From a virus (Duplodnaviria > Heunggongvirae > Uroviricota > Caudoviricetes), in the IMG/VR virus record IMGVR_UViG_2529293140_000005, positions 1 to 37,403 of that record: 37,403 bases of DNA. One strand, 5' to 3'. The notes under the pieces are model-generated. The model was not told the DNA's origin. It did not search any database and saw nothing but the letters and a program-made list of their open reading frames with translations. Made by a program: the position numbers and the translations under genes. Shown here one piece after another: positions 3,980 to 37,403 of the stretch (position 1 is the first letter of the stretch; every line of letters begins with the position of its first letter).

Positions 3980-4503
3980 CTATCAAATCAAATACGCCAG
4001 CACACGACAAGGACTGCTGGCAAACGCCGCTTTGGCTTTTTGATGCACTGGATATTGAGTTTGGATTCTGGCTGGATTCGGCAGCGAGCGACAAAAATGC
4101 TCTGTGCGCTCACTGGTTAACTGAGGCCGACGACGCGCTAAATTCTGAGTGGATAAGCCACGGTGCAATCTGGAATAACCCACCGTACAGCAATATCAGG
4201 CCGTGGGTGGAAAAAGCCGCTGAGCAGTGCATACAACAGCGACAGACGGTAGTTATGCTTGTGCCAGAGGATATGTCAGTCGGATGGTTCAGCAAGGCTC
4301 TGGAGAGTGTCGACGAAGTTCGCATTATCACTGATGGGCGGATTAATTTTATCGAACCATCGACAGGGCTGGAGAAGAAGGGAAACAGCAAAGGCTCCAT
4401 GCTGCTGATTTGGCGACCGTTCATCAGTCCTCGACGAATGTTTACTACCGTATCCAAAGCGGCATTGATGGCGATCGGGCAGGGCGTCAGGAGGGCGGCA
4501 TGA
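3976..4503 (+). CDS. Phage DNA N6-adenine methyltransferase
   Basis: NPPY motif (WNNPPYSN); about 175 aa; nin-region position. Confidence 0.7.
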
Positions 4504-4682
4504 GGCGACAGCGACGAAGCATCACCGACATAATCTGCGAAAACTGCAAATACCTTCCAACGAAACGCTCCAGAAATAAACGCAAGCCAATCCCAAAAGA
4601 ATCTGACGTAAAAACCTTCAACTACACGGCTCACCTGTGGGATATCCGGTGGCTAAGACATCGTGCGAGGAAAACAAGGTGA
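4500..4682 (+). CDS. ninE: NinE
   Basis: [60 protein letters not shown], near-identical to lambda NinE as recalled. ATG overlaps the upstream stop. Confidence 0.8.
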
Positions 4683-4858
4683 TTGACCAAAATCGAAGTT
4701 ACGAACAAGAAAGCGTCGAGCGAGCTTTAACGTGCGCTAACTGCGGTCAGAAGCTGCATGTGCTGGAAGTTCACGTGTGTGAGCGTTGTATATATGAATG
4801 CTTAAATATGGTGGAACATAATGAGAAATATAAGCAACATAGACGAATTAAGAAATAA
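4679..4858 (+). CDS. ninF: NinF with a replaced C-terminus (disrupted by the downstream insertion)
   Basis: GTG start overlapping the ninE stop. (M)[34 protein letters not shown] matches lambda NinF; the sequence diverges after that point, at about nt 4785. Confidence 0.55.
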
Positions 4859-5327
4859 ATTATCATATGATGATGTTTTAGGTGTACTTAGATGGAAAGT
4901 GTCTCCTTCTAATAATGTTAAGGTTGGCAGTGTTGCTGGTTACATTAGGAGTGATGGTTATAGGATGTTAACTATCGATGGTGTAATTACTTATGCTCAC
5001 CACGTTATATGGATGATAAATAATGGTGAGATTCCATTAGGGTATAAAATTGATCATATAAATGGAGTAAGGTCAGATAATAGGCTATCTAATCTTCGAT
5101 TGGTTACACACCAACAGAATGCACAGAACCAAAAGAGAAAAATAACCAATTCGTCAGGAGTGACTGGAGTATATTTCAATAAAGAGAGATGTAAGTGGAT
5201 TGCGAATATATGCGTAGATGGGCGCACCAAATATCTTGGAATATTTGCTAGCATCATTGACGCTATTGCAGAAAGGAAGAGGGCAGAAAAAGAACTGGGT
5301 TTTCATGAAAACCATGGCAGACCATAA
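4821..5327 (+). CDS. HNH homing endonuclease with an AP2-like DNA-binding domain
   Basis: HNH motif region YKIDHINGVRSDNRLSNLRLVTHQQNAQN. C-terminal GVTGVYFNKERCKWIANICVDGRTKYLGIFASIIDAIAERKRAE resembles an AP2 domain. AT-rich relative to its flanks. Confidence 0.75.
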   Translation: MRNISNIDELRNKLSYDDVLGVLRWKVSPSNNVKVGSVAGYIRSDGYRMLTIDGVITYAHHVIWMINNGEIPLGYKIDHINGVRSDNRLSNLRLVTHQQNAQNQKRKITNSSGVTGVYFNKERCKWIANICVDGRTKYLGIFASIIDAIAERKRAEKELGFHENHGRP

Positions 5328-5388
5328 CTGCGCAGAACTGATGAGCGATCCGAATAGCTCGATGCACGAGGAAGAAGACGATGGCTAA
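5328..5388 (+). other. Displaced 3' remnant of ninF
   Basis: Reading 5329..5388 gives [19 protein letters not shown]-stop, the lambda NinF C-terminus as recalled. It is out of frame with, and separated from, the ninF 5' part. Confidence 0.5.
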
Positions 5389-5992
5389 ACCAGCGCGAAG
5401 ACGATGTAAAAACGATGAATGTCGGGAATGGTTTCACCCTGCATTCGCCAATCAGTGGTGGTGCTCTCCAGAGTGTGGAACCAGGATAGCACTCGAACGA
5501 CGAAGCAAAGAACGCGAAAAAGCGGAAAAGGCAGCAGAGAAGAAACGACGACGAGAGGAGCAGAAACAGAAAGATAAACTTAAGATTCGAAAACTCGCCT
5601 TAAAGCCCCGCAGTTACTGGATTAAACAAGCCCAACAAGCCGTAAACGCCTTCATCAGAGAAAGAGACCGCGACTTACCATGTATCTCGTGCGGAACGCT
5701 CACGTCTGCTCAGTGGGATGCCGGACATTACCGGACAACTGCTGCGGCACCTCAACTCCGATTTGATGAACGCAATATTCACAAGCAATGCGTGGTGTGC
5801 AACCAGCACAAAAGCGGAAATCTCGTTCCGTATCGCGTCGAACTGATTAACCGCATCGGGCAGGAAGCAGTAGACGAAATCGAATCAAACCATAACCGCC
5901 ATCGCTGGACTGTCGAAGAGTGCAGGACCATCAAGGCGGAGTATCAACAGAAACTTAAAAAACTGCGAAACAGCAGAAGTGAGGCTGCATGA
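5381..5992 (+). CDS. ninG: NinG (Rap) recombination protein
   Basis: [41 protein letters not shown]... matches lambda NinG as recalled. Confidence 0.85.
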
Positions 5993-7676: not shown

Positions 7677-8000
7677 ATGAAGATGCCAGAAAAACATGAC
7701 CTGTTAGCCGCCATTCTCGCGGCAAAGGAACAAGGCATCGGGGCAATCCTTGCGTTTGCAATGGCGTACCTTCGCGGCAGATATAATGGCGGTGCGTTTA
7801 CAAAAACAGTAATCGACGCAACGATGTGCGCCATTATCGCCTGGTTCATTCGTGACCTTCTCGACTTCGCCGGACTAAGTAGCAATCTCGCTTATATAAC
7901 GAGCGTGTTCATCGGCTACATCGGTACTGACTCGATTGGTTCGCTTATCAAACGCTTCGCTGCTAAAAAAGCCGGAATAGAAGATGGTGGAAATCAATAA
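7677..8000 (+). CDS. S: Holin S (class I), with Met1-Lys2-Met3 dual-start motif
   Basis: [68 protein letters not shown]... matches lambda S as recalled. Confidence 0.9.
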
Positions 8001-8460
8001 TCAACGTAAGGCGTTCCTCGATATGCTGGCGTGGTCAGAGGGAACTGATAACGGACGGCAGAAAACCAGAAATCATGGTTATGACGTCATTGTAGGAGGA
8101 GAGCTATTCACTGATTACTCCGATCACCCTCGCAAGTTTGTCACGCTAAACCCCAAACTCAAATCAACAGCCGCCGGACGCTACCAGCTTCTTTCCCGTT
8201 GGTGGGATGCCTATCGTAAGCAGCTTGGCCTGAAAGACTTCTCTCCGAAAAGCCAGGACGCTGTGGCACTGCAGCAGATTAAAGAGCGTGGCGCTTTGCC
8301 GATGATTGATCGCGGTGATATCCGTCAGGCAATCGACCGTTGCAGCAATATCTGGGCTTCACTGCCGGGGGCTGGTTATGGTCAGTTCGAGCATAAGGCT
8401 GACAGCCTGATTGCAAAATTCAAAGAAGCAGGCGGAACGGTCAGAGAGATTGAGGTATGA
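7984..8460 (+). CDS. R: Endolysin R (lytic transglycosylase)
   Basis: [51 protein letters not shown]... matches lambda R as recalled. Confidence 0.9.
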
Positions 8461-8924
8461 GCAGAGTAACCGCGATTATCTCCGCTCTGGTTATCTGCAT
8501 CATCGTCTGCCTGTCATTGGCTGTTAATCATTACCGTGATAACGCCGTCGCCTACAAAGAGCAGCGCGATAAAAAAGTCAGTGAGCTGAAGCAGGCGACC
8601 GCCACCATTACTGACATGCAGCAGCGCCAGCGTGATGCTGATGCGCTCGATGCTAAATACACGAAGGAGTTAGCGGATGCGAAAGCTGAAAATGATGCTC
8701 TGCAGCGCAAGCTTGATAATGGTGGTCGGGTGCTCGTCAAAGGCAAGTGTCCAGTGTCAGCCGCAACCCAAACCACCGGCGCCGCCAGCATGGGCAATGA
8801 TGCCACCGTCGAACTCTCTGCAGTTGCTGGACGAAACGTTCTCGGTATCCGATCCGGAATCCTCAGCGACCAAACAGCCCTGAGGGCGCTGCAGGAATAC
8901 ATCACCACGCAGTGCCTGAAATAA
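8457..8924 (+). CDS. Rz: Rz i-spanin
   Basis: N-terminal TM segment and first ~80 aa lambda Rz-like; the C-terminal half is divergent. Confidence 0.85.
8677..8883 (+). CDS. Rz1: Rz1 o-spanin lipoprotein, embedded in Rz in the +1 frame
   Basis: [19 protein letters not shown] with lipobox VVGC followed by a Pro-rich segment; fully nested in Rz. Confidence 0.8.
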
Positions 8925-27022: not shown

Positions 27023-27351
27023 GAACCTATGGCCGAAACTCTGAGGGGAAGTGGGTCCTGGTGGAAACCGACGAATATGGGTTTAATGACTCGGTGTATT
27101 TGACGACCCTGATCCAGAATCTGAAACTGGCGCCGCAGGAGTCGCCATTTTATGCGAACAACGGAATCCCGGCCGCCGGGTCGGTGATCCAGCAAATCCT
27201 GCCGACGTATTACGTAAACCGTATTCAGAAACAGTTCAGCCAGTATTTTTCCTCGCTGCAGATTGCGCTGATCAGCGACGACCCGCCTGTTTATAACATC
27301 TCGGCAATCACAAACGCAGGTTCAAAAATAATTACACAGGTGGCCGTATGA
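27019..27351 (+). CDS. Baseplate wedge protein (gpW/gp25-size)
   Basis: 110 aa immediately upstream of the J-like gene. Confidence 0.4.
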   Translation: MRTYGRNSEGKWVLVETDEYGFNDSVYLTTLIQNLKLAPQESPFYANNGIPAAGSVIQQILPTYYVNRIQKQFSQYFSSLQIALISDDPPVYNISAITNAGSKIITQVAV

Positions 27352-28766
27352 GCGATTTACCAGTCAGCTATACGTCAGCAGGCCCGGTTCCTCTGACGCC
27401 GGAAGAGCTAAGAGCACAGCTCGTTTCACAGGCAATTGCGTTATCTCCGGGACTCACCACGGATTTGCCTGGCTCTCTGATTGAAGACGTGGCCAGCACT
27501 GATGTCGGCGCACTTATCGTCTGCGATCAGGCGAGGGTTGACCTGATTAACTCGGTGGGGCCACTAAAGGCTAACCTGGCCATGCTGGAGCTTCTCGCAC
27601 AGCAGGCTGGTATCCCTGGGCAGAAAACGGCTGGCACAACAACAGTTCCGGTTCAGTTTTCCGGCCCCGCGGGATTTGTTATCCCACAGGGGTTTATTGT
27701 TTCTGATGGGACCTATACCTATTCAGTCAGTGATGCGACGATAATCTCGTCGTCAGGAGTGTCTGCCAGCGTATCATGCGAGGGAACGGAGACCGGGACC
27801 TGGGCGGTGCCGGTAAATACGGTTAACCAGATAATCACTAGCCTACCGTCTGATGTCACCATTTCCTGCACCAACCCGATCGCCGGCACTCCTGGTGCTG
27901 ACCCGGAAACGAATTATCAGTTTCGTGATCGAGTATGGCAGGCTCAGATGGCCACAGTTCAGGGATATCCTGGATTTATCAGACAACATCTTACCAGCCT
28001 TGATAACGTGCAGGCGCGCCTGGTTTCTGTCATTCAGGACGGGGATAAGTGGATAGTCATGTGCGCCGGCGGTGATATTTACGATATTGCTGGCGCGCTC
28101 TATAAGTCTGCGGGGGATATCAGCCGGCTGAAAGGGTGTTCACTGAATGTAACTGGGATCACGAATGCAAATCCTGGCGTCGTCAGCACAGACCTGACTC
28201 ATGGTTACACTGATGGCCAGGTTATCCGGATCACTGGCGTTACCGGGATGACAGGCATTAATGACGTTCCTCTGACCGTGACGGTACTGTCTCCTCACAC
28301 TTTTTCCATCGGAATTGACACCACTTCATCCGGGACCTGGGGAGGCGGCGGCGAGGTGACGCCGAACGTCAGAAACAATACCGTGACGGTGAATGACTGG
28401 CCTGATAACTACGTGATCCCGTTCGTGACACCATTGCTGCAGCGGGTCACAGTGACGTATCAGTGGGGGACCGAAAGTGTTAACTACCTGACAGATGCCA
28501 CGGTCGCCTCTCTGGTCTCGGCTCCTACGATTCAGTATGTGAACGGCATATTCGCCGGGAAACCGCTGAACGTTAACAACCTGAAAGACGCATTCTTACA
28601 GGCGATTAACTCGACAATCGACATGGGGCTGATCAGCACTTTAAACGTCGTGGTCACCATCAATGGTGTGATTACGCCACCGGATGCCGGGACGAATATT
28701 ATCAGCGGCGATAAGTTCAGTTATTTTTATATCGCGTCGGATGGCGTGATCGTAACAGGGGCGTAG
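27348..28766 (+). CDS. Baseplate J-like protein with an internal Ig-like domain
   Basis: 472 aa; position; contains the shared ~70-aa motif. Confidence 0.55.
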   Translation: MSDLPVSYTSAGPVPLTPEELRAQLVSQAIALSPGLTTDLPGSLIEDVASTDVGALIVCDQARVDLINSVGPLKANLAMLELLAQQAGIPGQKTAGTTTVPVQFSGPAGFVIPQGFIVSDGTYTYSVSDATIISSSGVSASVSCEGTETGTWAVPVNTVNQIITSLPSDVTISCTNPIAGTPGADPETNYQFRDRVWQAQMATVQGYPGFIRQHLTSLDNVQARLVSVIQDGDKWIVMCAGGDIYDIAGALYKSAGDISRLKGCSLNVTGITNANPGVVSTDLTHGYTDGQVIRITGVTGMTGINDVPLTVTVLSPHTFSIGIDTTSSGTWGGGGEVTPNVRNNTVTVNDWPDNYVIPFVTPLLQRVTVTYQWGTESVNYLTDATVASLVSAPTIQYVNGIFAGKPLNVNNLKDAFLQAINSTIDMGLISTLNVVVTINGVITPPDAGTNIISGDKFSYFYIASDGVIVTGA

Positions 28767-28767
28767 C

Positions 28768-29472
28768 ATGCTGGACGATATCATCCGGTCGTATATGTAT
28801 ACGCAATACAACGACGATGACAATCTGCGGGCATTTTTTACTGCGTATAACTCGATGGCGCAGGGCATTTATGACTGGATGGTTAATGCCAACCTGCCGA
28901 TTTTCATCGGTGACTACAACACCGGAGACCAGCTCAGGTGGATTGCCCATGGCATCTATGGCGTTTTACCGCCGGTTATTTCCAGCAGCGATCAGCAGGA
29001 GATAGGCCCATATAACACCTTCGAATTTAACCAACTGGCATTCAATGAGTACCGGGTGATTGACCAGTCGAACCAGGTTGTTGTCTCTGATGACCTTTTT
29101 AAGCGGATCATGACCTGGAATTTTTACAAGGGGGATGGCTTCTATTTCTCCATCCCATGGATAAAGCGGCGTGTTCTGCGGTTCCTGTTGGGAGTAAATG
29201 GCACAGACATCCTCAACGACCAGCGATGGAGTATCTCGATCCAGTTTGTGGATGGCGGTATCGTGATATCCATCTATAAGGGGCGCCGCAGGTTCACGCG
29301 GAGCGCTATCTACAACGCATCGGCCTATAACTCTAGGAAGTACAACCAGAAGGACACGGCCTTTGTGATCACCGAGGATTTCGAGTTCGCCATTTTCTTC
29401 AAGCAGGCCATGGATAGCGGCCTGCTGCACATGCCGTTTTATCAGTCAATTAGCGTTGAAATAATTGATTGA
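28768..29472 (+). CDS. Baseplate/tail-fibre attachment protein
   Basis: 234 aa following the J-like gene. Confidence 0.4.
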   Translation: MLDDIIRSYMYTQYNDDDNLRAFFTAYNSMAQGIYDWMVNANLPIFIGDYNTGDQLRWIAHGIYGVLPPVISSSDQQEIGPYNTFEFNQLAFNEYRVIDQSNQVVVSDDLFKRIMTWNFYKGDGFYFSIPWIKRRVLRFLLGVNGTDILNDQRWSISIQFVDGGIVISIYKGRRRFTRSAIYNASAYNSRKYNQKDTAFVITEDFEFAIFFKQAMDSGLLHMPFYQSISVEIID

Positions 29473-29520
29473 TTTTTTATCCCACTACTAATAAATTTAT
29501 TTGAATTTATTTGATGGGAC

Positions 29521-30045
29521 ATGGCTATGAAATTATTTCCTGTAGTGCTATTTTTATGTTTTCTTTCATCTGGTTGCATGACTTCATCCGAGTATCATAA
29601 ATACTTAATTGATAGGATTGATGAAGGAGAAAACCAAAAGGTCGCCAAAATATTAAAAGAAAATGAGGAACACCAAGGTGGTGAATTCTTATGTAAAACA
29701 TTTGGCTCAGAATTTAAAGGCCTGAAACCAAATTCGGCAGTTAAAGTAATTGATGAAGTTGTTAGATTTAAAGTGTATGAACAAAACAACCTCATTTTTA
29801 CAAGCCCTGAACTTTCCATAAGTTCAAGAACCAAAGATAGGACGGCATCATTAGATGATGAAAATATTACTGCTAGTGTTTTCGCCGGTTACAGGGAGGA
29901 TGGCGTAGGGTACCGGTATGAAGTTAAGTTTGAAAGCAAAATAAAAGACGGTTCATTATATAAAGTTGTTTACGGAACGGCACATCAAATATTAACCCCA
30001 GTTTATGCAGGTAACATCACTATAAGTGAATGTAGAAAAATATAG
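29521..30045 (+). CDS. Lipoprotein moron (signal peptide, lipobox LSSGC), unknown function
   Basis: MAMKLFPVVLFLCFLSSGCMTSSEY. AT-rich. Own terminator downstream; the flanks are structural genes. Confidence 0.65.
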   Translation: MAMKLFPVVLFLCFLSSGCMTSSEYHKYLIDRIDEGENQKVAKILKENEEHQGGEFLCKTFGSEFKGLKPNSAVKVIDEVVRFKVYEQNNLIFTSPELSISSRTKDRTASLDDENITASVFAGYREDGVGYRYEVKFESKIKDGSLYKVVYGTAHQILTPVYAGNITISECRKI

Positions 30046-30063
30046 AGCCTTTAATTTCACACT

Positions 30064-30086
30064 AACCCGCTTCGGCGGGTTTTTTA
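30064..30086 (+). terminator. Rho-independent terminator after the lipoprotein gene
   Basis: AACCCGC TTCG GCGGGTT hairpin followed by TTTTT. Confidence 0.65.
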
Positions 30087-30106
30087 TGCCTAAATCCGGA
30101 GGAGAC

Positions 30107-32254
30107 ATGGCACTAACCCTTTTGGCTACAAACAACGCAGAAAGCACGCTGGCTTCTGCTATCAGCGCAACCGACACGTCGCTGATCGTTAGCGCTGGAA
30201 CTGGTGCCGAGTTCCCTGATGCTGTGGCAGGCGAGAGTTATTTTAAGCTCACTCTCACTGATGCCGCCACCGGTTCACAGGTTGAGATCGTGAACGTGAC
30301 AGCTAAGGCTGGGGACATCTTCACGATTGAACGTGCGCAAGAAGGAACGCTGGCGCGTGCTTGGGCGGCCAATGATATGGTTGCCAACATGATGACGGCG
30401 GACACGCTGAACATTATCGCTCAATATTCCCAGCAGGCAGCTGCATCAGCAGCACTGGCTGAAGAGTATGCAGATAACGCTTCTGACTACGCACAGAATA
30501 AGTTCACGTTCTATAAGACTGCCAGCGATCCTGATGGCACCATCGCAGGGCTGGCAGCAACTACTGACGGCCAGTCTTTCTGGGTAGCCCAGGGTCCGGA
30601 TGCGCTTTCTTCTGCATGGCAGTATCAAAACAAAGCAGGCGTGGCCGTATTGCAGGCGAAGCAGCCGGGTACAGCGGCCATAACAGGGACAACCCGCGAG
30701 TTTCCGACGCTGGCTGCGGCACAGGCTGATGCTGACGCAGGGAATATACAACCAGGAGCGAAATGCTGGGTGACAAGCGCGGATGATAGCTCTCTTGCAA
30801 ATGAATATATAAACAACTCCGGAACTTTGCAGCCTACAGGAGTAATCTCTCCTTCTTCAAAAACAATCGATAATAAAATTAATGAACGCCTCGTCCCAGG
30901 TGAATACAGGCCTGGTTATTTCCCGGCCTTCTTTGACAGGAATGGTATGGTGCCAGCATGGTTTGATGGCGGCAAATTTGATGTGGCAGGACTGGGGCCA
31001 AATGTTACACAGGTTGTTTCTGAAATTCCAAACGAATGGGCCCAGAAGTTTATCCCGCAAGGAGACTTTTCACCTTATTACTTTCCTTTTTTATATGACC
31101 AACAAGGGAACGTATATGCTTGGTTTAATGGTGGGCTATTCGATGCTCCAGGTCTTGGCCCGGTATTGCAGGAATATGTCAAAAACCTGGTGTCTGGTGG
31201 GGAAGTTGATGCGGTACGTTCCTTCATCGAAGGAGATCAGTACAAGTTCCTTTTCAAAAATAGCCGTATTTTTGCTGGCCAGTCTACCAGCCTAAACATT
31301 GCTTTTACCGGCGATTCGTGGACAGAGAAAAACACCATTCCTCAGTCTTTAATTAATATTCTTGGTGGTACATACAAAGACCCTGGCTGGATTAGTTGTT
31401 CAAACAGAACAGATGGTGTCATGTCTGGAATATCACCAGTAACCGCAACAAACTTTACGAAATATGACGGTGGCAGCAATAACACGAACATTCCGCCGTA
31501 TGGCTGTGGCCCTGATGGCAACGGATACTACAACAACAACACTGTTGGTTCGCTCGTATGGACGGGCGTGACCGTAACAAATCTTTCGGTATTTTACTAT
31601 GATGGGTCTGGAACGTTCACCATCACCATCGACAGCAATGCACCTGTAACAATCACGGGAGGGAATACAGGGACTGCCAAGAAGTATGATTTCAGCGGAC
31701 TTAGCGCTACTGCACATACGGTGACAATCCAAAGCACCGGTACTGGTGTTGTTTCCATTCTTGGTATGTATGGTAAAAATAACTCAATATCATCAGGGGT
31801 GACTGTATCCAGGATGGGTAATGGAGGAGCATTTGCAAGTGACTATTTCAACTTTTCATCATGGATAAAGCCAGTAGCTCAATACCTTGATATAGACCTC
31901 CTTTTTATTATTCTTGGAACGAATGACTTCCGGATGAGTCAGGGGCTAGCTGAGTACAAATCTGGGATTATTGAAATAATTACTAAATATAGAAGCGCAA
32001 CTCCTGATATTTGCATTTGCCTTATGTCCCCTGCACAGTGTAACGCCACAGGAACACCCGCACTGTCAGAATACGATAAAGCAATGAGGGAAATAGCGGT
32101 TGAATATAATGTAAATTTCATTAGTGGTTATCAATTATTCCCCAAAGTGTATAGCAGTTCAGGAGGTGCGTGGGAAGATGCCTTGCATCTTAGCGCCTTG
32201 GGCGCATATGTACTAACGAGAAAGATCAAAAAAGAATTTTTCCTGGGAGCTTAA
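30107..32254 (+). CDS. Tail fibre/spike protein with a C-terminal SGNH/GDSL hydrolase (esterase) domain
   Basis: ATG at 30107 with GGAGGAG RBS. N-terminus homologous to the second fibre gene. GDSL block IAFTGDSWTE, later ILGTNDF and DALHLS. Confidence 0.7.
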   Translation: MALTLLATNNAESTLASAISATDTSLIVSAGTGAEFPDAVAGESYFKLTLTDAATGSQVEIVNVTAKAGDIFTIERAQEGTLARAWAANDMVANMMTADTLNIIAQYSQQAAASAALAEEYADNASDYAQNKFTFYKTASDPDGTIAGLAATTDGQSFWVAQGPDALSSAWQYQNKAGVAVLQAKQPGTAAITGTTREFPTLAAAQADADAGNIQPGAKCWVTSADDSSLANEYINNSGTLQPTGVISPSSKTIDNKINERLVPGEYRPGYFPAFFDRNGMVPAWFDGGKFDVAGLGPNVTQVVSEIPNEWAQKFIPQGDFSPYYFPFLYDQQGNVYAWFNGGLFDAPGLGPVLQEYVKNLVSGGEVDAVRSFIEGDQYKFLFKNSRIFAGQSTSLNIAFTGDSWTEKNTIPQSLINILGGTYKDPGWISCSNRTDGVMSGISPVTATNFTKYDGGSNNTNIPPYGCGPDGNGYYNNNTVGSLVWTGVTVTNLSVFYYDGSGTFTITIDSNAPVTITGGNTGTAKKYDFSGLSATAHTVTIQSTGTGVVSILGMYGKNNSISSGVTVSRMGNGGAFASDYFNFSSWIKPVAQYLDIDLLFIILGTNDFRMSQGLAEYKSGIIEIITKYRSATPDICICLMSPAQCNATGTPALSEYDKAMREIAVEYNVNFISGYQLFPKVYSSSGGAWEDALHLSALGAYVLTRKIKKEFFLGA

Positions 32255-32256
32255 TA

Positions 32257-33015
32257 ATGCCGATATCAGCTATTTATATAGACGCCACTCTTCCAGTTAT
32301 CTCTGGAATGAAAACTTTATCTGACTTTGATGTGTCAAACTGGTTTATTGGCCTGCCAACCACAGGTGCAACACCTTATGCTGGTTTCTATTTTGGGGAC
32401 CCCGTAACCGACATAACCTACAACTCTTATAATAAAGATTCTCCGGCAGTCATTCATGGAAATGTAAACAATTCTCCTGGATATATATCTGTAAATACAA
32501 CAGATTACATGGATACTAATCAGAAGGCTACTCTGTCATTATCTGTTTGTGGGGTTGCCAAGCGCAATCCAGCAGGCGCATCACTTAACGCCCATATGAT
32601 TGCAGATTTTGCTGGCAGTGGGTCTGCTGCAAGTGGTTTTTCGGTAGGGTTTACAAACGGCACAGGAAGTCTTTTTTGTGTTGGACAAAATAACGGACAA
32701 TCTTCAGCTGGTTATGCTTACGCTACATTCCCAACCGCAATCGCAGTCGGAGATATATTTGCATTTTGCGCATCGATAACTCAAGGCTCCGTTACAGTAG
32801 ATATATTTAATCCTGAAACTGGAACTCTTATTTCCGGGAGTGAAACATTTCCCGGGACCAGGGTGGCAGGTACTAATAATGTACTGCTTGGTAGAAAAAC
32901 TGATAACAACAGCGAAACAAGTACCAAGTACATTAAGTCTTGTCTGTTGATGAACGGCATTCTTACCTCAGCAGAAAAAATATCTGTCTCTCAGTTTTTA
33001 CTGGCGATGCAATAA
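32257..33015 (+). CDS. Hypothetical protein downstream of fibre 1 (possible fibre accessory or receptor-binding partner)
   Basis: 252 aa, AT-rich, start adjacent to the fibre stop. Confidence 0.4.
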   Translation: MPISAIYIDATLPVISGMKTLSDFDVSNWFIGLPTTGATPYAGFYFGDPVTDITYNSYNKDSPAVIHGNVNNSPGYISVNTTDYMDTNQKATLSLSVCGVAKRNPAGASLNAHMIADFAGSGSAASGFSVGFTNGTGSLFCVGQNNGQSSAGYAYATFPTAIAVGDIFAFCASITQGSVTVDIFNPETGTLISGSETFPGTRVAGTNNVLLGRKTDNNSETSTKYIKSCLLMNGILTSAEKISVSQFLLAMQ

Positions 33016-33019
33016 CGAG

Positions 33020-33259
33020 TTATGCGCTCAGATGTTTGACACATGAGAAGAATTGCAATTTACCGCCATCAGTAAGCTCCACCATTATCGTGTTAGTGCC
33101 ATCTGAAGTTTCAGCCCAACCATGTGACTGTAGGGCCTCGTAGTCAACCCCATTTTTGCTGAGCTTGAGGCCCAGGTCATCGGATTTACGTAGTATTCTG
33201 CGAACAAGAGTGTCACTTTTTGTACTCATTTTGGTGGCGGAGTGTCTTGGATAAAACAT
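33020..33259 (-). CDS. Small hypothetical protein (69-79 aa), divergent from the LexA-box operon
   Basis: Minus-strand ORF; alternative start at 33229; no recognisable motif. Confidence 0.3.
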   Translation of the reverse strand: MFYPRHSATKMSTKSDTLVRRILRKSDDLGLKLSKNGVDYEALQSHGWAETSDGTNTIMVELTDGGKLQFFSCVKHLSA

Positions 33260-33357
33260 GTATTGATATCAATTAGTTGTGTGAAAAGCAATTTAAGAGG
33301 CTACCGGAAGATAAAACAAAGTCATCATCAAGTATTGATCCGACTCTTTGATGAAAC

Positions 33358-34998: not shown

Positions 34999-36195
34999 TT
35001 ACTCGCCTGCGCGACCATCAATGTAATCAGCCCACCACTGCATCATTTCTCTGCGCTTATCGAGATACTGAGCATGGTTGTAAATCCCGCGCACAGAACC
35101 GCCGTTGGCATGTGCCAGTTGCACTTCAATAGCATCAGCAGGCCATTCGTTCTCGTTCATAATCGTGCTGAATTCATGCCTGAATCCGTGACCGCTTTCC
35201 AGACCCTCATAGCCGATTTGTTTGATCACAAGTAGCACCGCGTTCTCGCAGATTGGCTTCTTCTTATCGTTGCGCCCGGCAAAAACAAACTCTGATACTG
35301 GTTTGGTGATTGAGCTTAGCGTAGTGAGAAGTTCAACCACCTGGTCTGACATCGGTACTACATGGATCCTTCGTCCTTTCATCACACTGGCGTCGATGGT
35401 GATAATCCTGTTTTCAAAATCGACGTTCTTCCATAGCATGGAACGAAGCTCTTTCGTTCTTAGGGCAGTGTAGCGTAAAATCTTGGTGGCAATGAGCGAT
35501 ACGATACTTCCTGAAAATGTTGCCAGTGCTTTGTTGAATGCCGGGATCTGGTCTGCAGGAAGAAACGGGAAGTTCTTCTTGCGGTATCCCTTCATGGCGT
35601 CAGCAAGGTCAGGTGCCGGGTTATATTTAGCCCTACCGGTGACAATAGCGTAACGGAAAACCTCGCCGCATCTTCTGCGTGCTTTGTTGGCTCGCTCCAT
35701 TGCACCGCGATCTTCAAATCTGCGGATTACTTCCAGCAGTTGCATCGGCTCAATATCCTGAATCTCAAGACCGCCGATGATGGGTAAAATGTCGTCATCA
35801 AACATTTTTGCAAGTTCAGTTGCATAGCCTACAGACCAGACTTGCTTCTTGTGCTCGTACCATTCCTTGTAAATCGCACTAAAGGAATTGTTGTTAGACG
35901 AAGCCTTTTTCGCCTTTACCGGATCGATACCAACCGAGATGTCTTTCCTCGCAGTCCATGCTTTATCCCTTGCCTCCTGCAAAGTCATAAGCGGATATTT
36001 TCCGACAGTCAGGATTTTCTCCTTACCGTCAATCTTGTAGCGAAGCTGCCATACCTTTTTCCCGGATACAGGGACATAAAGGTACAGGCCATTACCATCG
36101 AGAAGGCGATATGGTTTTTCTTTCGGCTTTGCTGCTTCAATCTGCTTAACGGTGAGCATGGGTAAAAATCCGGTGGGTAAAATTATTTTATCCAC
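34999..36195 (-). CDS. intS: Tyrosine site-specific integrase (P4-type)
   Basis: 398 aa; C-terminal catalytic motifs (HGFRHEF..., final Y region); adjacent to a tRNA 3' end. Symbol assigned from the argW/yfdC context as recalled for E. coli. Confidence 0.85.
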   Translation of the reverse strand: MDKIILPTGFLPMLTVKQIEAAKPKEKPYRLLDGNGLYLYVPVSGKKVWQLRYKIDGKEKILTVGKYPLMTLQEARDKAWTARKDISVGIDPVKAKKASSNNNSFSAIYKEWYEHKKQVWSVGYATELAKMFDDDILPIIGGLEIQDIEPMQLLEVIRRFEDRGAMERANKARRRCGEVFRYAIVTGRAKYNPAPDLADAMKGYRKKNFPFLPADQIPAFNKALATFSGSIVSLIATKILRYTALRTKELRSMLWKNVDFENRIITIDASVMKGRRIHVVPMSDQVVELLTTLSSITKPVSEFVFAGRNDKKKPICENAVLLVIKQIGYEGLESGHGFRHEFSTIMNENEWPADAIEVQLAHANGGSVRGIYNHAQYLDKRREMMQWWADYIDGRAGE

Positions 36196-36320: not shown

Positions 36321-36395
36321 TGGTGTCCCCTGCAGGAATCGAACCTGCAATTAGCCCTTAGGAGGGGCTCGTTATATCCATTTAACTAAGAGGAC
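36321..36395 (-). tRNA. argW: tRNA-Arg (anticodon CCU)
   Basis: Reverse complement reads GTCCTCTTAGTTAAATGGATATAACGAGCCCCTCCTAAGGGCTAATTGCAGGTTCGATTCCTGCAGGGGACACCA: cloverleaf with GGTTCGATTCC T-loop, CCT anticodon, 3' CCA. Confidence 0.85.
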
Positions 36396-36470: not shown

Positions 36471-37403
36471 TTATGCCGGGTTTTTATAATTTTTCTTAAT
36501 GTTTTCCGCACGTTCTGCTTTTTGGCGTGCTTCTGCTTTACGCTTATTGCTCATGTCGTTACGAATCTGTGCATGACTCATTAACGCGAAGATAAAGGTG
36601 CCGCCGCAGATGTTCCCCGCTAAAGTAGGTAGTGCGAAGGGCCAGATGAAATCGCTCCAGTGCAGCGTACCGTTAAACACCAGATAGAGGATTTCAACAG
36701 AACCGACCACGATATGGGTGGTGTCACCCAGGGCAATAAGCCAGGTCATCAATATAATCACCACAATCTTTGCCGCACCCGCTGCAGGAAACATCCAAAC
36801 CATAGTGGCGATCAGCCAGCCGGAAATGATCGCGTTGGCAAACATCTCGCTGGGGGTGTTCTTCATCACATCCATGCCGATTTTGACAAATGCATCGCGA
36901 GTTTCTTCATTGAAGATAGGCATATATTCAAATGCCCACGCCGCAATACCTGTCCCGAGAATATTACCCAGCAGCACGACGCCCCATAACCGTATAAGTA
37001 AGCCGACGTTGCTCATTGTCGGTTTTTGCATGACGGGTAGTACCGCAGTCACGGTATTTTCGGTAAATAATTGCTGGCGGGCCATAATGACGATAATAAA
37101 ACCAAAGGTATAACCGAGATTCTCCAGCAAGAAGCTGCCCGGCACACCTTCCAGTTCGACTTGAAATATCCCTTTTGCCAGTAACGAAGCGCCCATCGAC
37201 AGACCCGCCGCAATGGCTGACCACAGTAGCGCCATTGCGTCGCGTTCCAGCTCTTTTTCACCATCCTGGCGGATATGCTCATGAATTGCCATCGCCCGGG
37301 AGGGGAGTCGGTCTTCATCTATTTCTATTTTTTTGCCGCGCTCTTTTTCTTCGCTCTCAACTTCAATTTCGTCGCTGTGTTGATCAATTTTGTCGTTGTC
37401 CAT
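36471..37403 (-). CDS. yfdC: Host inner-membrane protein, formate/nitrite transporter family (YfdC-like)
   Basis: 310 aa with multiple hydrophobic helices; ATG at the window edge. E. coli argW context recalled from memory. Confidence 0.65.
   Translation of the reverse strand: MDNDKIDQHSDEIEVESEEKERGKKIEIDEDRLPSRAMAIHEHIRQDGEKELERDAMALLWSAIAAGLSMGASLLAKGIFQVELEGVPGSFLLENLGYTFGFIIVIMARQQLFTENTVTAVLPVMQKPTMSNVGLLIRLWGVVLLGNILGTGIAAWAFEYMPIFNEETRDAFVKIGMDVMKNTPSEMFANAIISGWLIATMVWMFPAAGAAKIVVIILMTWLIALGDTTHIVVGSVEILYLVFNGTLHWSDFIWPFALPTLAGNICGGTFIFALMSHAQIRNDMSNKRKAEARQKAERAENIKKNYKNPA

Follow-up and report, generated by a model that had tools for sequence, protein, structure and literature searches.

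What is a small lipoprotein gene doing between the baseplate and tail-fibre genes of a temperate phage? The question arises from a sharply AT-rich segment in the 37,403-nucleotide stretch of DNA analysed here, which we call the window. The first-pass annotation described the gene as a stand-alone lipoprotein moron with its own terminator and suggested a role in lysogenic conversion or superinfection exclusion. The window holds most of a temperate myovirus prophage. It begins with replication genes and a Nin-like region, followed by a lysis cassette (7677..8924) of holin, endolysin and Rz with an embedded Rz1. Genes for terminase, portal, capsid, sheath, tape measure, baseplate hub, a Baseplate_J-like protein, a 234-aa protein and the lipoprotein follow in that order, and the prophage ends with a 715-aa tail fibre, a 252-aa gene, a second fibre gene and the integrase. 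Four features outside the tail module are needed below:

8457..8924: Rz-like spanin gene, which contains the embedded Rz1
8677..8883: Rz1, in the +1 frame within Rz, a typical 68-aa Pro-rich lipoprotein ORF
34999..36195, minus strand: integrase gene, adjoining tRNA-Arg(CCT)
36321..36395: tRNA-Arg(CCT), beside the integrase gene

The position of the integrase gene next to tRNA-Arg(CCT) suggests that the prophage integrated at this tRNA, with host DNA at 36471-37403. E. coli strain F5 matches the region around the lipoprotein gene at 100% identity, and the Klebsiella phages vB_Kpn_Chronis and RothC/D are relatives of the prophage. These phages have been put in a proposed family of gut-associated temperate phages, Felixviridae, whose prophages, mostly those of Klebsiella, are reported to occur commonly in the gut; the text of that preprint makes no mention of lipoproteins or morons (10.1101/2024.12.02.626457).

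The surroundings of the lipoprotein gene are as follows:

28768..29472, plus strand: conserved gene of the baseplate module, 234 aa (Chronis gp21-like, phrog_8212), which bounds the slot on the left
29473..30063, plus strand: low-GC cargo cassette of 591 bp, missing or exchanged in related phages
30064..30087, plus strand: intrinsic-terminator-like hairpin and T-run, a resident element and the right border of the slot
30098..30104, plus strand: RBS GGAGGAG before the tail-fibre gene
30107..32254, plus strand: tail-fibre gene, encoding a 715-aa protein that ends in an SGNH/GDSL esterase domain

The location given by the first-pass annotation was correct, with the Baseplate_J-like gene (27348..28766) and then the 234-aa gene on one side of the cassette and the tail-fibre gene on the other. 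So was the composition: the cassette has a GC content of 0.335 against a mean of 0.514 (sd 0.054) over 591-nt windows of the whole stretch, only 0.1% of which are as low, and it lies at about the GC minimum. Elsewhere, the 3' half of the tail-fibre gene together with the next gene (about 30800-33350) is also GC-poor (0.39-0.46). Away from the tail-fibre region, only one further stretch, 4498-5457, falls below 0.40. It includes the HNH endonuclease gene of the Nin-like region (4821-5327) and probably also arose by insertion of mobile or accessory DNA.

To place the cassette among relatives, about 100 related loci were compared, 92 further loci being retrieved via the 234-aa protein, and slot length was taken as the distance from the stop codon of the 234-aa gene to the tail-fibre ATG. 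Against Chronis and RothC, homology ends with the stop codon of the 234-aa gene, which is itself 94-100% identical among close relatives, and restarts at the hairpin. Slot length ranges from -4 bp to 3340 bp. Distant relatives have slots of -4 to 7 bp, with the flanking genes abutting in L089, L090, L094 and L096, and in five loci (L080, L082, L084-L086) a slot of 67-69 bp consists of hairpin and RBS only. Most loci have a slot of 300-1058 bp with one gene, and some reach 2.3-3.3 kb. The GC content of the slot is 0.30-0.40 where it holds a single gene (0.3-1.1 kb) and 0.39-0.44 in the larger inserts, compared to 0.45-0.53 for the flanks. When the ORFs in the slots were clustered, at least seven unrelated families of small, low-GC cargo emerged, encoded on both strands:

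Sec230: 230-aa secreted protein
TM100: two-helix membrane protein of about 100 aa, minus strand
The window lipoprotein, plus strand
Sec153: 153-aa secreted protein
Sec133: 133-aa secreted protein, minus strand
LipoB: a second, modular lipoprotein
A 138-aa secreted protein, minus strand

Signal peptides, lipoboxes or membrane helices are present in nearly all of the other small cargoes. The slot of Chronis encodes the 230-aa secreted protein, and that of RothC encodes, on the minus strand, a protein of 133 aa with a signal peptide. Individual cargo families turn up again in backbone clades that share only ~65% identity, and divergence is greater among the cargo proteins than in the backbone. 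Among 5426 complete E. coli genomes, 43 have the backbone gene, and only nine of these 43 also have the lipoprotein. We are nearly certain that the lipoprotein gene belongs to the accessory cargo of a hypervariable slot and is, broadly speaking, a moron.

Several slots hold content of interest in its own right. The 133-aa ORF of RothC (L002, PP934563; 3985-4386, minus strand), which has a clear signal peptide, is unannotated in GenBank, where the slot is instead given three minus-strand ORFs of 31-43 aa; homologues of the 133-aa ORF fill the slot in five other loci. In two loci with a 3340-bp slot (L079 and L081), the minus strand encodes an Acyl_transf_3 membrane acyltransferase of 340 aa, a classical surface-modifying conversion function, and an extra tail-fibre gene is present as well. 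Bro-N/antirepressor-like genes occupy the slot in L067, L069, L072, L074 and L077. LipoB proteins (L050, L051, L054, L057, L058, L074) share N- or C-terminal halves in varying combinations.

With the slot defined, the claim that the gene brings its own terminator could be examined. A hairpin with a T-run does close the segment at 30064..30087, as had been noted; the stem-loop AACCCGC-TTCG-GCGGGTT (30064..30081) has seven pairs, five of them G-C, and a centroid energy of -11.8 kcal/mol. In nearly all of about 70 aligned slot variants, the 75 nt before the tail-fibre ATG contain a GC hairpin, a T-run, ATTGCC and the RBS, and a recognisable hairpin is missing from only a few diverged loci in that alignment (e.g. 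L006/L053, L007, L008 and L010). The hairpin is also found in the empty slots L080, L082 and L084-L086. Each sequence was folded separately, as RNAalifold on a MAFFT alignment mis-registered the stems and was uninformative; the hairpin formed in 23 of 23 diverse sequences, at -6 to -16 kcal/mol, with compensatory stem changes (CCCGC/GCGGG, CCTCGC/GCGGGG, CCCAC/GTGGG, ACCGCC/GGCGGT and CAGC/GCTG). Since hairpin, T-tract and RBS are common to the different cargo types and to the empty 67-69-bp slots, and the stems stay complementary, we conclude that this is a backbone terminator and not the moron's own. Its conservation, empty slots included, further indicates that cargo enters upstream of a resident terminator-like element. 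Certain cargoes do appear to bring such an element along: in Chronis (L001) the cargo gene gp22 is followed by a short hairpin, CCCACGCCAGTGGG and ATTTTAT, at 4717-4730, about 30 nt before the resident hairpin, unlike the window cassette. The resident hairpin sits inside the late structural operon, just before the tail-fibre RBS, and tail-fibre expression past it might occur by read-through, by antitermination or as attenuation that sets stoichiometry.

The upstream end of the cassette has a structure of its own:

29473..29525, plus strand: lipoprotein-gene leader, which duplicates the tail-fibre leader in degenerate form
29494..29513, plus strand: tandem duplication AATTTATTTG x2 (10-nt unit), within the leader

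Both leader copies contain a T-run, ATxCC, TAAAT, GAxGxGAC and ATGGC. Local alignment of the pair (29473-29525 against 30080-30111) scored 15.8, a value matched by none of 2000 shuffles, while other cassette windows scored at most 10.45. Among 49 slot variants tested, the duplicated leader is confined to lipoprotein cassettes, and it is probably a scar of the cassette's recombination into the slot. As the copy includes ATGGC, it accounts for the two in-frame ATGs and the additional "MA" of the 174-aa ORF. The short tandem repeats reported upstream of the gene are present; they are kept in close alleles and degenerate in L098, and nothing in the window, the close alleles or L098 marks AATTTATTTG x2 as more than a slippage duplication.

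How the gene is transcribed bears on the description of it as stand-alone. A consensus scan, which is insensitive in AT-rich DNA, found no plus-strand sigma-70-like site upstream of the lipoprotein gene, and the best candidate by eye was only TTGATT-16-ACTAAT. Scans of the window, Chronis, RothC and L050 likewise gave no convincing cargo promoter on either strand. Nothing terminator-like lies between the 234-aa gene, the upstream late gene, and the lipoprotein gene. Because the gene stands downstream of the late tail genes with no terminator between, and has a copy of the tail-fibre leader, we predict at least late co-transcription. The textbook moron has its own promoter and terminator; here the scan found no promoter and the terminator is resident, common to the slot contents and the empty slots. 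The label of moron therefore has strong support for an accessory gene between conserved neighbours, in a slot of -4 bp to 3.3 kb with at least seven cargoes, but lacks support for a stand-alone unit, given the shared hairpin, the scan that found no promoter-like site, the lack of a terminator after the upstream late gene and the leader copied from the tail fibre.

The product of the gene was then considered from its sequence:

29521..30045, plus strand: lipoprotein ORF, longest form, 174 aa, N-terminus MAMKLFPVVLFLCFLSSGC
29527..30045, plus strand: lipoprotein gene from the second ATG, 172 aa
29527..29577, plus strand: predicted signal peptide MKLFPVVLFLCFLSSG and lipid-modified Cys, with Met as residue +2
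29692..29694, plus strand: conserved Cys56 (172-aa numbering), candidate disulfide partner, invariant including the most distant homologue, P0014
30031..30033, plus strand: conserved Cys169 (172-aa numbering), candidate disulfide partner, likewise invariant including P0014

The second ATG (29527, 172 aa) is the start in 12 of the 13 database homologues. Lipoproteins were recognised by a positive n-region, a hydrophobic h-region and a lipobox Cys at residue 15-35, using a PROSITE-PS51257-style pattern, {DERK}6-[LIVMFWSTAG]2-[LIVMFYSTAGCQ]-[AGS]-C, with K/R near the N-terminus. The 174-aa lipoprotein with lipobox LSSGC that had been proposed is upheld by this test: the pattern fits the window protein (VLFLCFLSSGC; Cys17 and K2 in the 172-aa form) and all 14 family sequences, that is, the window protein and its 13 homologues. 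Residue +2 is Met in the window protein and Ser in P0014, which by the Lol avoidance rule (+2 not Asp) predicts sorting to the outer membrane. The signal peptide is the sole hydrophobic segment, the KD19 maximum being 1.74 at the N-terminus against 0.63 in the mature part, and the profile revealed no hydrophobic segment in the mature part or at the C-terminus. By sequence and the Lol rule, a rule-based prediction, the product is very probably an outer-membrane lipoprotein, and its mature form would have 156 aa and a mass of 17.7 kDa.

The family to which this protein belongs comprises 13 clusters, all in this slot. Twelve of them, from Klebsiella and E. coli, are 81-96% identical. The thirteenth member, P0014, is a 186-aa lipoprotein with 30% identity that came from an exhaustive HMMER search of 1.84 billion representatives; its gene lies in the same slot on a 47-kb phage contig, beside a flanking gene with 58% identity. 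All other alleles checked sit in the same slot. Four other HMMER matches were rejected as artefacts, being long tandem-repeat proteins whose scores were summed over many repeats. Searches of Pfam, PHROGs, NCBIfam and PADLOC returned no usable match, the sole NCBIfam line scoring 12.7 bits against a cut-off of 50, and a sequence-profile search of the PDB gave chance matches only (E>0.5). No lipoprotein match was detected by tblastn against 50,697 phage records, so that no cultured phage record there encodes the protein. Within the slot itself, the beta-rich C-terminal half of LipoB has FxCK and a C-terminal Cys in common with the window lipoprotein and marginal profile similarity to it (hhalign probability 68%, E 4.7e-5), in part driven by the signal peptide.

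Despite its narrow distribution the family behaves as a gene under selection. In pairwise Nei-Gojobori comparisons, dN/dS is 0.21 for the lipoprotein and 0.02 for its 234-aa neighbour, both with a dS of ~0.17, which indicates that the lipoprotein gene is functional and that its protein-level evolution is about ten times faster. The ORF is intact in all alleles. The lipoprotein gene is thus a real gene under selection. We regard it as true accessory cargo of a well-defined slot, encoding a lipoprotein of an orphan family, and as an ordinary kind of prophage moron.

Structure prediction, one of the checks proposed for this protein, gave a divided result. With the signal peptide and 13 near-identical sequences, AlphaFold reached a pLDDT of 36.7. 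When the mature sequence was used and P0014 was included, one of five models was confident (pLDDT 86, pTM 0.72), the others having pLDDT values of 40-64. The confident model has a 29-residue helix followed by about ten strands that are predicted to form a small up-and-down beta-barrel, and we consider this helix and beta-barrel fold a prediction of moderate reliability. Fold matches to that model were generic. Foldseek found nothing in the PDB below E 1e-3, and a viral fold library gave weak matches (E ~1e-3, TM 0.4-0.5) of the predicted structure to uncharacterised lipoproteins of Erwinia and Pectobacterium phages. A calycin-like protein (lipocalin, fatty-acid-binding protein, avidin or nitrobindin) would have an 8-10-stranded up-and-down barrel and family motifs; about ten strands were modelled. 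Compared to the lipocalin Blc, MliC/PliC-type inhibitors and Neisseria fHbp/TbpB, the modelled small barrel scores generically, de novo designed barrels scoring equally, and the one confident model of five comes with no family-level sequence match to any of these barrels.

The constant neighbour of the lipoprotein gene is the tail-fibre gene, which lies directly downstream of it in every locus examined. Tail fibres of this group have a conserved N-terminus of ~130-260 aa and a highly exchangeable C-terminus, with 44 C-terminal clusters among 70 complete proteins. If the lipoprotein were matched to the receptor of the adjacent fibre, cargo and fibre should travel together. Cross-tabulation showed instead that the lipoprotein co-occurs with six tail-fibre C-terminal clusters, and the cluster of the window's own tail fibre is also found with Sec230 cargo. 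We rejected receptor matching, since cargo type reassorts freely with the fibre C-terminus, and this absence of co-variation leaves a receptor-matched blocker of the T5 pb5/Llp kind unsupported.

Phage-encoded lipoproteins that act in the periplasm offer the closest comparison. Llp, Cor and Rtp45 are periplasm-facing outer-membrane lipoproteins (PMC9586334; PMC12685063). Llp has 61 residues (PMC9586334) and Rtp45 about 6 kDa (PMC12685063); Llp has an internal disulfide, as does Cor, and its gene adjoins that of its receptor-binding protein (PMC9586334; PMC12685063). Like T5 Llp, T1/phi80 Cor and Rtp45, the window protein is phage-encoded, with a lipoprotein signal peptide and a predicted periplasm-facing location at the outer membrane. 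Like Llp, it is encoded next to a receptor-binding gene, here the tail fibre, and, like Llp and Cor, it has a conserved Cys pair compatible with a predicted internal disulfide. The differences are as clear. There is no detectable sequence or fold similarity to Llp, Cor or Rtp45; at 17.7 kDa the mature protein is about three times larger than these proteins of ~6-7 kDa; it has a predicted helix and beta-barrel domain and belongs to a temperate myovirus; and its occurrence shows no co-variation with the type of the adjacent tail fibre. Homology, the other check that had been put forward, revealed no similarity to Llp, Cor, Rtp45, Bor or TraT.

Other prophage systems resemble the locus more in arrangement than in product. 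Lambda Bor is an outer-membrane lipoprotein. As with lambda bor/lom and the P2 moron region, the gene here is an AT-rich, deviant addition amid conserved late genes close to those for the tail fibres; unlike the lambda morons, the lipoprotein has no homology to Bor or Lom. In a P2-like prophage, a "second moron region" between gpH and gpFI has been used (PMC13622650). Ltp of Streptococcus thermophilus phage TP-J34 is described as a prophage lipoprotein acting in superinfection exclusion (PMC3952083). The window lipoprotein is likewise prophage-encoded, whereas Ltp is surface-exposed on a Gram-positive host, has no detectable similarity to it and differs in genomic position.

Our overall interpretation is tentative, and we put it a little below an even chance: the gene would be accessory cargo of a temperate myovirus of the proposed Felixviridae, encoding an outer-membrane lipoprotein that acts on the envelope against phage adsorption or entry. 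The gene, which brings no terminator, relies on the resident one of the backbone, and the arrangement described above implies at least late co-transcription with the tail genes. Anchored in the outer membrane, the lipoprotein would present to the periplasm a disulfide-braced domain of ~17.7 kDa, made up of an N-terminal helix and a small beta-barrel. From there it may hinder, at the level of the envelope, the adsorption of phages or the entry of their DNA, for the purpose of superinfection exclusion or of shielding progeny from dead-end adsorption. It would most likely do so in the manner of Llp, Cor and Rtp45, by binding an outer-membrane component from the periplasmic side. Taken by itself, a phage-exclusion function, by which we mean envelope-level exclusion or progeny protection, ranks first by analogy; given the parallels to Llp, Cor and Rtp45, yet a threefold greater size, an unrelated sequence and no fibre co-variation, we would call it possible rather than probable. 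No sequence or profile similarity to a known exclusion, conversion or defence protein was found in Pfam, PHROGs, NCBIfam, PADLOC or the PDB.

A benefit to the host is the next reading to be weighed, and we think it somewhat unlikely. The lipoprotein would then be a conversion factor that confers tolerance of serum, lysozyme or antimicrobial peptides, binds a ligand, or protects the lysogen from envelope stress, and lambda Bor/Iss, MliC/PliC and the bacterial lipocalin Blc are precedents for lipoproteins that benefit the host. However, Pfam gave no match at E<=0.1 to Bor, MliC, LprI or the lipocalins, the structural matches are all low and generic, and the scan found no upstream promoter from which a lysogen would express the gene.

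The lipoprotein might alternatively found a new class of envelope effector, an ~18-kDa beta-barrel lipoprotein tethered to the outer membrane that would block adsorption or entry of phages by a target or mechanism unlike those of Llp, Cor and Rtp45; the slot would then be a multi-allelic envelope-effector locus. We consider this unlikely. If it were true, the recurrence of cargo families across backbone clades of only ~65% identity would be kept up by frequency-dependent selection among competing gut phages.

The gene could also be purely a helper of the lytic cycle, expressed by late read-through only, with no role in the lysogen, its product masking receptors on debris and vesicles or modulating envelope breakdown. 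Its orientation with the late operon, the lack of a terminator after the gp21-like gene, the leader copied from the late tail-fibre gene and the want of a sigma-70-like promoter upstream all favour this idea. T5 Llp, termed a "lytic conversion" protein (PMC9586334), is likewise made during infection, and its production is reported to start soon after infection. Set against this, the opposite-strand cargoes of the slot cannot be late-operon passengers, which suggests that the slot generally hosts independently expressed genes, and a simple promoter scan is insensitive in AT-rich DNA; a purely lytic helper is, in our view, quite unlikely.

To a functionless passenger or a decaying gene we give only a slim chance. 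An orphan family with a narrow distribution might be expected of such a gene, but the ORF is intact in all alleles at a dN/dS of 0.21, the lipobox and two Cys persist even in the homologue with 30% identity, and the diverged phage has its gene in the same slot. A spanin was rejected: the phage has its own Rz and Rz1 in the lysis cassette, so the lipoprotein is not the o-spanin, and the C-terminal hydrophobic segment that a u-spanin reading would call for is missing. A virion or tail-assembly component, such as a baseplate or fibre accessory, has the gene's location within the tail module in its favour, but the gene is atypical in composition, and phages that are near-identical apart from it lack it or have another in its place, among them Chronis and RothC/D, isolates that form plaques; and, as a Sec/Lsp-processed lipoprotein exits the cytoplasm where tails are assembled, export and dispensability together make this role very unlikely, the least probable of all.

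A moron lipoprotein beside a tail-fibre gene is expected in temperate phages. What the comparison adds is a precise cargo slot of the Felixviridae type, running from the stop codon of the gp21-like gene to the resident hairpin and filled by a small repertoire of uncharacterised proteins predicted to be targeted to the envelope. The slot is a natural, well-delimited site for marker insertion in these phages. Should some of its cargoes exclude other phages, this would influence which hosts therapeutic phages of Klebsiella and E. coli can infect and would add new mechanisms of receptor masking.
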